A program made the translations under genes and the position numbers. Below the pieces are notes generated by a model, which saw nothing but the letters and a program-made list of their open reading frames with translations, had not been told where the DNA came from and searched no databases. Shown in pieces: positions 49,617 to 51,638 of a DNA stretch of 64,000 bases (position 1 is the first letter of the stretch; the number at the start of each line of letters is the position of its first letter). The DNA is taken from the NCBI RefSeq assembly GCF_988242995.1, contig NZ_OZ547043.1. One strand, written 5' to 3'.

Positions 49617-49745
49617 AGTTTGCTCCTGCCATAACGTTAAGAAGCAATGACCTGGTGGTCCGTGACTTCCCTACGCTGGCATTATCCAGATCAGGTGATA
49701 CGGGTATTTCTCAGCCTTCACGCAGAAGGGCACCCCGAGTCGTTT
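49617..49745 (-). promoter_or_regulatory. TPP (thi-box) riboswitch in the thiMD leader
   Basis: Minus-strand sequence actcggggtgcccttctgcgtgaaggctgagaaatacccgtatcacctgatctggataatgccagcgtagggaa... matches the remembered E. coli thiM aptamer (CUGAGA thi-box present). Confidence 0.8.
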
Positions 49746-49838
49746 GGTTGCGATGATAAATCGCAGAGGAGGATGGTAATGTCCAGCGCACGCGTTGTAA
49801 ACGAGGAAAAACCGCAGTTTTACAATCGCGTTAATAAA

Positions 49839-50111
49839 TTATTTGATATAAGAATCCAGCACCTTCAGAACTACATCCAGATCTTCTTCACGTTTTAGCT
49901 CATCCCCCTGGTGAACGATGTGTTCCGTCAGATGACCTTTAATCACTTCCCGCATCAGACCGTTTACCGCGCCACGGATAGCAGCAATCTGTTGTAAAAC
50001 TGCAGCGCATTCGTGCGGCTCGTCGAGCATTTTCTTGAGCGCCACGACCTGGCCCTGAATCTTACTGGCACGCGCTTTCAGTTTCTGTTTATCACGGATT
50101 GTATGAGACAT
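49839..50111 (-). CDS. rcnR: Ni/Co-responsive repressor RcnR
   Basis: 90 aa, matches remembered RcnR ([21 protein letters not shown]...). Confidence 0.9.
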
Positions 50112-50159
50112 GGCAACACCTGGTTAACAAGAATATGAAAAATCATAGCACTATTAATC

Positions 50160-50194
50160 TACTGGGGGGTAGTATCAGGTACTGGGGGGGAGTA
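50160..50194. promoter_or_regulatory. Tandem RcnR operators (TACT-G6/7-N-AGTA)
   Basis: tactggggggtagta (50160-50174) and tactgggggggagta (50180-50194) in the rcnR-rcnA divergent intergenic region. Confidence 0.7.
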
Positions 50195-50231
50195 GAATAA
50201 GATTGCCGAATTAATACTAAGAATTATTATC

Positions 50232-51056
50232 ATGACCGAATTTACCACTCTTCTTCAGCAAGGAAACGCCTGGTTCTTCATCCCCAGCGCCATCTTACTT
50301 GGTGCGCTTCATGGCCTGGAACCAGGGCACTCAAAAACGATGATGGCGGCGTTTATCATCGCCATCAAAGGCACCATTAAACAGGCGGTAATGCTCGGAC
50401 TGGCAGCAACCATTTCGCATACCGCAGTGGTCTGGTTGATTGCCTTTGGCGGGATGGTGATCAGCAAGCGCTTTACTGCTCAATCAGCAGAACCGTGGCT
50501 CCAGTTGATTTCCGCAGTGATCATTATTGGCACCGCGTTCTGGATGTTCTGGCGTACCTGGCGCGGCGAACGCAACTGGCTGGAGAATATGCACGAGCAT
50601 GATCATGAACATCATCACCACGATCACGAAGATCACCACGACCATGGACATCATCACCATCACGAACATGGCGAGTATCAGGATGCCCATGCACGAGCCC
50701 ATGCCAATGACATTAAACGACGCTTTGATGGTAGAGAGGTCACCAACTGGCAAATTTTGTTATTTGGCTTAACCGGTGGCCTTATACCCTGCCCGGCAGC
50801 AATTACCGTGCTGTTGATTTGCATTCAGTTGAAAGCCCTGACACTGGGCGCAACACTGGTCGTCAGTTTCAGCATTGGCCTGGCGTTAACGCTGGTCACC
50901 GTAGGCGTTGGCGCAGCAATCAGCGTTCAGCAGGTCGCAAAACGCTGGAGCGGATTTAACACTCTCGCTAAACGCGCCCCCTATTTTTCCAGTCTGTTGA
51001 TTGGCTTAGTTGGTGTGTATATGGGCGTACATGGCTTCATGGGCATAATGCGATAA
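50232..51056 (+). CDS. rcnA: Ni/Co efflux permease RcnA
   Basis: 274 aa with His-rich cytoplasmic loop (HEHDHEHHHHDHEDHHDHGHHHHHEHG). Confidence 0.9.
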   Translation: MTEFTTLLQQGNAWFFIPSAILLGALHGLEPGHSKTMMAAFIIAIKGTIKQAVMLGLAATISHTAVVWLIAFGGMVISKRFTAQSAEPWLQLISAVIIIGTAFWMFWRTWRGERNWLENMHEHDHEHHHHDHEDHHDHGHHHHHEHGEYQDAHARAHANDIKRRFDGREVTNWQILLFGLTGGLIPCPAAITVLLICIQLKALTLGATLVVSFSIGLALTLVTVGVGAAISVQQVAKRWSGFNTLAKRAPYFSSLLIGLVGVYMGVHGFMGIMR

Positions 51057-51274: not shown

Positions 51275-51613
51275 ATGACCATTAAAAATAAGATGTTGCT
51301 GGGTGCGCTTTTGCTGGTTACCAGTGCCGCCTGGGCCGCACCAGCCACCGCGGGTTCGACCAATACCTCGGGAATTTCTAAGTATGAGTTAAGCAGTTTC
51401 ATTGCTGACTTTAAGCATTTCAAACCAGGCGATACCGTCCCAGAGATGTACCGCACCGATGAGTACAACATTAAGCAGTGGCAGTTACGTAACCTGCCCG
51501 CGCCTGATGCCGGGACGCACTGGACCTATATGGGTGGCGCGTACGTGTTGATCAGCGACACCGACGGTAAAATCATTAAAGCCTACGACGGTGAGATTTT
51601 TTATCATCGCTAA
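51275..51613 (+). CDS. rcnB: Periplasmic protein RcnB (YohN)
   Basis: 112 aa from ATG 51275 (GGAGA RBS) with signal peptide; track start is further upstream. Confidence 0.8.
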   Translation: MTIKNKMLLGALLLVTSAAWAAPATAGSTNTSGISKYELSSFIADFKHFKPGDTVPEMYRTDEYNIKQWQLRNLPAPDAGTHWTYMGGAYVLISDTDGKIIKAYDGEIFYHR

Positions 51614-51638
51614 AAAAAACCCCCTCATCATGAGGGGG
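51612..51638 (-). terminator. Terminator of the yeh operon (overlaps rcnB stop)
   Basis: Hairpin ccccctca-tca-tgaggggg followed on minus strand by U8. Confidence 0.5.

Follow-up and report, generated by a model that had tools for sequence, protein, structure and literature searches.

Tandem G-tract sites between rcnR and rcnA match the K-12 RcnR operator base for base

Two TACT...AGTA repeats, each built around a run of G, lie side by side between the divergent rcnR and rcnA genes, and the question they raise is whether they are the operators through which RcnR controls both genes or serve some other role. We approached this in the window (the whole 64,000-nucleotide stretch of DNA analysed here) and in related genomes. 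The sites are almost certainly tandem type 1 RcnR operators that repress both divergent promoters until Ni(II) or Co(II) binds RcnR. To this reading the present analysis contributes the sequence, its identity with K-12, the gene context, the promoter geometry given by published transcription starts and the exclusive linkage to rcnR; the literature contributes binding, stoichiometry and release by metal; and we infer where exactly the –10 boxes lie and that repression works by steric occlusion.

Two G-tract sites in the rcnR-rcnA gap

Site 1 (TACTGGGGGGTAGTA, TACT-G6-T-AGTA) occupies positions 50160-50174 on the rcnR-proximal side, and site 2 (TACTGGGGGGGAGTA, TACT-G7-AGTA) occupies positions 50180-50194 on the rcnA-proximal side; both were read directly from the sequence, neither was assigned a strand, and they are separated by the 5-bp spacer TCAGG (50175-50179, likewise unstranded). 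Site 2 can equally be written TACT-G6-N-AGTA with N = G, and in site 1 N = T. The two TACT-G6/7-N-AGTA sites that the sequence-only reading had placed at 50160-50194 were exact in both coordinates and pattern, and the 20 bp that it gave between them is correct as the start-to-start distance, which equals the centre-to-centre distance and leaves a gap of 5 bp.

A search with TACTGGGGGGNAGTA on both strands of the 64 kb window, allowing up to two mismatches, matched sites 1 and 2 only, at a chance level of 0.16 matches expected per window as estimated from dinucleotide-preserving shuffles. A repeat finder independently picked out sites 1 and 2 as direct copies of 15 nt with 93% identity, at a spacing of 20. 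Since the analytic expectation for an exact TACT-G6-N-AGTA match is ~5e-4 per window, two copies 20 bp apart are not a product of chance. No third site was found within 150 bp of sites 1 and 2 at up to four mismatches. A G-quadruplex at the sites was also considered and dismissed because there are only two G runs.

Both sites lie inside the 120-bp gap that separates rcnR from rcnA. On the minus strand, rcnR (49839-50111) encodes a 90-aa Ni(II)/Co(II)-sensing repressor of the CsoR/RcnR family, which scored 197 bits against the NCBIfam equivalog NF011613 (cut-off 138) and matched Pfam PF02583. It carries the metal ligands His3, Cys35, His60 and His64 together with the RASK motif, as is expected of a cognate repressor with the H-C-H-H sensing motif defined in PMC11672702. 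On the plus strand, the regulated gene rcnA (50232-51056) encodes a 274-aa Ni/Co efflux protein (NCBIfam NF007454, 560 bits; Pfam NicO), and downstream of it rcnB (51275-51613, plus strand) encodes a periplasmic accessory protein (Pfam PF11776 RcnB; RefSeq annotation). The window is a piece of E. coli chromosome with the gene order thiD-thiM-rcnR-rcnA-rcnB-yehA, and RefSeq annotates the corresponding region of E. coli genomes as thiM, a TPP riboswitch, rcnR, rcnA, rcnB and yehA.

Some further elements were recorded in the window. The TPP riboswitch lies at 49651-49747 on the minus strand (Rfam RF00059, 71 bits), upstream of thiM-thiD and just downstream of rcnR, and the CyaR/RyeE small RNA lies at 1098-1183 on the plus strand (Rfam RF00112, 100.7 bits). 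In the gap between rcnB and yehA (51620-51638), the minus strand has a GC-rich hairpin with a T run after it; by its look this would be the yeh fimbrial operon's terminator, perhaps a bidirectional one.

The TACT-G6-N-AGTA pattern is the RcnR consensus given in PMC7055735, PMC3902906 and PMC7105576, three papers that cite the primary work. They state that apo-RcnR binds this very pair of K-12 sites and that Ni(II) or Co(II) releases it, and they credit the operator to Iwig & Chivers 2009 (J Mol Biol 393:514) and Blaha et al. 2011 (Biochimie 93:434). The E. coli RcnR operator is described as a tandem of two 'type 1' sites, each bound by one tetramer, in which RcnR contacts the TACT/AGTA arms through the minor groove and the unbroken G tract takes on A-form character that is recognised by its shape (PMC3902906). 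The RcnR tetramer blocks transcription of rcnA and rcnB and comes off the DNA in the presence of Co(II) or Ni(II) (PMC7105576). Salmonella RcnR binds DNA at least 90-fold more weakly in vitro with Zn(II), the coupling energy being reported as comparable to that of Co(II) (PMC5709419).

The type 2 operators of the same protein family, for example those of Streptomyces lividans CsoR, resemble RcnR sites in being G-tract pseudopalindromes with A-form-like DNA character and GTA dyads as anchors, but in them two short G/C tracts lie 2-4 bases apart, the AT-rich arms are spaced by ~11 bp, and each site takes up two tetramers where an RcnR site takes up one (PMC3902906). Each site in the window has a single unbroken tract, G6 or G7, with 7 bp separating the arms, and so neither has the make-up of a type 2 operator.

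Comparison with K-12 (DH5alpha) showed that the 35-bp operator at 50160-50194 is identical base for base. The flanking genes and the distances to both start codons and to the published transcription starts are also the same, as are the RcnR and RcnB proteins. The RcnA proteins differ by one substitution, A126E (window 50608-50609, codon 126), at the start of the histidine-rich loop. The 120-bp gap differs only at position 50199, outside the sites, where the window has A and K-12 has C; we regard this A as a natural allele, since the whole 120 bp is found with 100% identity in further E. coli strains. Judged by its sequence, then, the window operator is the K-12 rcnR-rcnA operator, an already known feature. 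The EMSA with RcnR, with and without Ni/Co, that the sequence-only reading had suggested has in effect already been published for identical DNA, according to the three papers cited above. The nickel/cobalt efflux switch of this strain is of the K-12 type and intact, a result mainly of quality-control value, and a genuine operator could here be recognised from sequence alone.

The region is widespread in E. coli: the surrounding 2 kb was matched in 5417 of 5426 complete genomes, and the 120-bp intergenic region was present at 95% identity or more in 5361 of the 5426. Individual strains differ in small ways. The A at 50199 is shared by, for example, E. coli M217 and EP91A. In ETEC1720, the tract of site 2 is G6 rather than G7, perhaps as a rare variant or perhaps through an error in sequencing the homopolymer. 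In ETEC4085, rcnA is parted from its promoter and operator by an inserted IS5-family element, which lies a few bases 5' of the rcnA ATG.

Position of the sites on the divergent promoters

To place the promoters we used transcription starts experimentally mapped in E. coli MG1655 (Kim et al. 2012, Table S1; PMC3415461), positioned on the window by matching the 51-nt strings of that table. The rcnR start falls at window position 50134 on the minus strand (NC_000913 2183841, minus; leader of 23 nt; 11 reads). For rcnA, there is an upstream start at 50184 (plus strand; NC_000913 2183891; leader of 48 nt; 12 reads) and a main start, a G, at 50205 (plus strand; NC_000913 2183912; leader of 27 nt; 25 reads). 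Read counts behind all three starts, at 11-25, are low (PMC3415461).

Counted from the rcnR start, site 1 occupies –26 to –40 and site 2 occupies –46 to –60. Counted from the main rcnA start, the corresponding intervals are –45 to –31 for site 1 and –25 to –11 for site 2; counted from the upstream rcnA start at 50184, which lies inside site 2, they are –24 to –10 and –4 to +11. With the published starts mapped to the window, the core promoters of rcnA and rcnR both fall under the sites, which extend across the –35/spacer region on either side and reach the margin of the rcnA –10 box. A repressor bound at the sites would therefore sit on the core of each divergent promoter, in keeping with the repression reported for both genes. 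The further claim of the sequence-only reading, that the sites serve as a positive control for an intact divergent promoter region, was borne out: the 35-bp operator and RcnR are those of K-12, and the sites overlie both promoters as located by the published starts.

The boxes that best accompany these starts can be assigned provisionally. For the main rcnA promoter, the putative –10 box is TAGAAT (50193-50198, plus strand), the first two bases of which are the end of site 2. A –10-like hexamer, TAGTAT (50170-50175, plus strand), is formed by the 3' arm of site 1 and the first base of the spacer, and precedes the upstream rcnA start, 50184, by 8 nt. For rcnR, the start at 50134 is preceded by a putative extended –10 element, TGcTATGAT (50142-50150, minus strand). 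The allelic position 50199 falls between the putative –10 box of the main rcnA promoter and its +1, 6 nt short of the latter. The abstract of Blaha et al. reportedly terms the two promoters 'convergent', which has no obvious match to the back-to-back geometry given by the starts.

Three other promoter candidates were rejected. A consensus promoter scan proposed TTGCCG-16-TATTAT, ending at the rcnA ATG, and TTAACC-18-TACAAT, inside rcnR; both misfit the published starts. A symmetric rcnR –10 hexamer, TAGATT (50161-50156), mirroring the rcnA box, was set aside since the base corresponding to the T at hexamer position 6 is not conserved on the rcnR side, and since the published start fits TGcTATGAT instead.

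Taken with the published biochemistry, this geometry would give the following course of events. In the absence of metal, RcnR tetramers would occupy both sites, one each, touching the inverted TACT/AGTA arms and reading the A-like shape of the unbroken G tract. From this position, across both –35/spacer regions and part of the rcnA –10 box, RcnR would keep RNA polymerase off the two promoters, and rcnA(-rcnB) and rcnR would be repressed. Binding of Ni(II) or Co(II) to RcnR, through ligands including His3, Cys35, His60 and His64, would lower its affinity for DNA, and its release would free the promoters so that the efflux pump is made.

The tandem motif across species

We scanned one genome per species, covering 100,044 bacterial and archaeal species, for the pattern TACTGGGGGNNAGTA-N(3-8)-TACTGGGGGNNAGTA. 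This pattern required exact arms and G5, so that conservation of the arms and of the G5 core within the resulting set is circular; independent information comes only from the linkage to genes, from the orientation, from the spacer and from positions that the pattern left free. The scan gave 82 matches. Within the Enterobacterales they came from Escherichia, Salmonella, Citrobacter, Enterobacter, Klebsiella, Raoultella, Kosakonia, Rahnella, Serratia, Hafnia, Erwinia and others, and outside this order from Vibrio, Shewanella and Chromobacterium.

When the loci were compared with the window proteins by tblastn, a divergent RcnR homologue (58-100% identity) was found on the same side of the motif in 79 of the 79 loci with enough flanking sequence; the remaining 3 of the 82 end within ~100 bases of the motif. 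Three Shewanella loci apart, every testable locus had an RcnA homologue on the opposite side. In every locus the rcnA coding strand was the G-rich one, and the site nearest rcnR was always the one with T before AGTA, the G7 site being nearest rcnA. The sequence-only reading had held that the sites fit the RcnR pattern, and this is upheld both by the consensus in PMC7055735, PMC3902906 and PMC7105576 and by the exclusive occurrence of the tandem motif with rcnR homologues.

These linkage data bear on whether another regulator, such as the paralogue FrmR or the iron and nickel regulators Fur and NikR, might be the chief occupant of the sites, with RcnR in a minor role. FrmR is a close relative of RcnR, the window RcnR itself scoring 76 bits on the FrmR model, and operators across the CsoR/RcnR family share a plan of G/C tract plus inverted repeat (PMC3902906). 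Against this, the tandem motif adjoins an RcnR homologue wherever the linkage could be tested (79/79), the papers assign both binding and the Ni/Co response at these exact sites to RcnR (PMC7055735, PMC3902906, PMC7105576), and FrmR acts on its own frmRA promoter (PMC4528141). We therefore consider a different principal regulator very improbable, and retain RcnR as the protein that these sites serve.

The free positions of the motif were nearly invariant. At site 1 they were GT in 77 loci, AT in 3 and CT in 2, and at site 2 they were GG in 79 of the 82. The base before AGTA was T at site 1 in all 82 species and G at site 2 in 81. The spacer was 5 bp long in 65 sequences and 6 bp in 18 (the 82 loci plus the window), and none of the 82 loci had a spacer of 3, 4, 7 or 8 bp, though the pattern allowed these lengths. 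The spacer comprised 38 different sequences, beginning with T in 81 of the 82 loci. Its length being fixed at 5-6 bp places the sites two helical turns apart, on one face of the DNA.

Homopolymeric G runs within promoter spacers could in principle be slipped-strand, phase-variable tracts that switch rcnA or rcnR on and off by altering promoter spacing, rather than protein recognition elements, and the G6 tract in place of G7 at site 2 of ETEC1720 is the kind of change that such a device would produce. Runs of 6-7 bases are, however, short for efficient slippage in a mismatch-repair-proficient enterobacterium. The tract lengths were the same in the 10 Escherichia sequences compared, ETEC1720 excepted, and do not vary between species either, and the free positions are near-invariant across the 82 species (GT 77 times at site 1, GG 79 times at site 2); phase variation also gives the TACT/AGTA arms no role. 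We find it extremely unlikely that the tracts are phase-variable switches, and the operator reading accounts for the arms and the tracts together.

The three loci without RcnA (L005, L030 and L031) are from uncultured Shewanella and have the tandem operator together with an RcnR homologue of 67-68% identity. The homologue in L005 has the H-C-H-H residues, and the gene downstream of the operator in this locus (787-1137) encodes a 116-aa membrane protein with no significant Pfam match, which may be a different regulated gene.

Operator arms, promoter elements and related sites

Operators reached through the repressor protein, and not through the motif, gave independent support for its conservation. 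On an IncHI2 plasmid found in this way, whose rcnR is 92% identical, both 15-mers are unchanged and the spacer and flanks differ. A Ralstonia RcnR homologue (62% identity) is accompanied by a single TACT-C6-T-AGTA site. In the Pseudomonas plasmid pCAR1.3, TATAC-C4-AGTATA is found at a DmeR-like gene adjoining dmeF. Like the window sites, the Ralstonia and Pseudomonas sites have a G/C tract between short AT-rich inverted arms and lie between a divergently oriented repressor gene and a gene for efflux; unlike the window, with its two phased copies of G6 and G7, each has one site only, and the Pseudomonas site has a shorter tract and different arms. In the IncHI2 plasmid pC309-VIM4 (L002, 1197-1880), ~680 bp separate an IS26 copy from the operator and rcnA is not listed, the gene table being incomplete; rcnA may have been truncated by IS26, with rcnR and both operator sites kept.

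The flanks of the sites are conserved in a manner relevant to the promoters. Read together, the two bases that close site 2 and the four after them gave the hexamer TAnnnT in 81 of 81 loci, most often TAGAAT (39 loci), and TAGTAT was present at site 1 in 81 of 82. On the rcnR strand, a TGnTAnnnT box was found 9 nt from site 1 in 40 loci and 26-27 nt from it in 24. These conserved hexamers agree with the putative –10 assignments in the window, and conservation of the flanks suggests that the operator arms may double as promoter elements.

Could the repeats then be promoter elements only, duplicated by chance or by a small tandem duplication, without operator function? Each 3' arm is indeed part of a TAnnnT hexamer suitably spaced from a published start, and these hexamers are conserved at both sites (81/81 for TAnnnT at site 2, 81/82 for TAGTAT at site 1). 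Such an origin leaves unexplained the 5' TACT arms and the G tracts, which are kept on the plasmid copy and in Ralstonia, as well as the strict 20-21 bp phasing and the exclusive association with the repressor gene, and it is contradicted by the published binding data (PMC7055735, PMC3902906, PMC7105576). Moreover, promoter and operator roles are compatible and not mutually exclusive. We give almost no credence to a promoter role alone, and keep to RcnR operators that may also carry promoter elements.

A more specific form of this dual role seems to us quite possible, though we stop just short of favouring it. The AGTA 3' arms might also be the –10 elements of the two rcnA promoters (TAGTAT for the start at 50184, TAGAAT for that at 50205), so that RcnR and RNA polymerase would compete for the same bases, and the T/G asymmetry between the sites would be imposed by promoter function and not by RcnR. 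In the same proposal, the third sites present in 21 of the 82 species would form a phased repressor array with a length tunable by lineage. If true, dual operator/promoter arms or three-site variants would be a modest refinement. What the comparison adds is small, namely the 20-21 bp phasing, the fixed orientation, arms that may double as –10 hexamers, and the three-site variants; these details sharpen what is understood of a well-studied metal sensor and could be of use in designing promoters for Ni/Co biosensors, and they open no new question.

The third site starts 21 bp from site 1, towards rcnR, and its sequence is AACTGGGGGGGAGTT or, with the tract inverted, TACTCCCCC(T/G)GAGTA. Loci of this kind came from the Kosakonia/Phytobacter group (L012, L039, L040, L055, L056, L062, L064 and L082) and from Enterobacter, Klebsiella and Lelliottia (L013, L019, L043, L048-L051, L054, L058, L071, L077, L078 and L086). 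In the 21 three-site loci, the TGnTAnnnT box on the rcnR strand is shifted from 9 nt to 26-27 nt from site 1.
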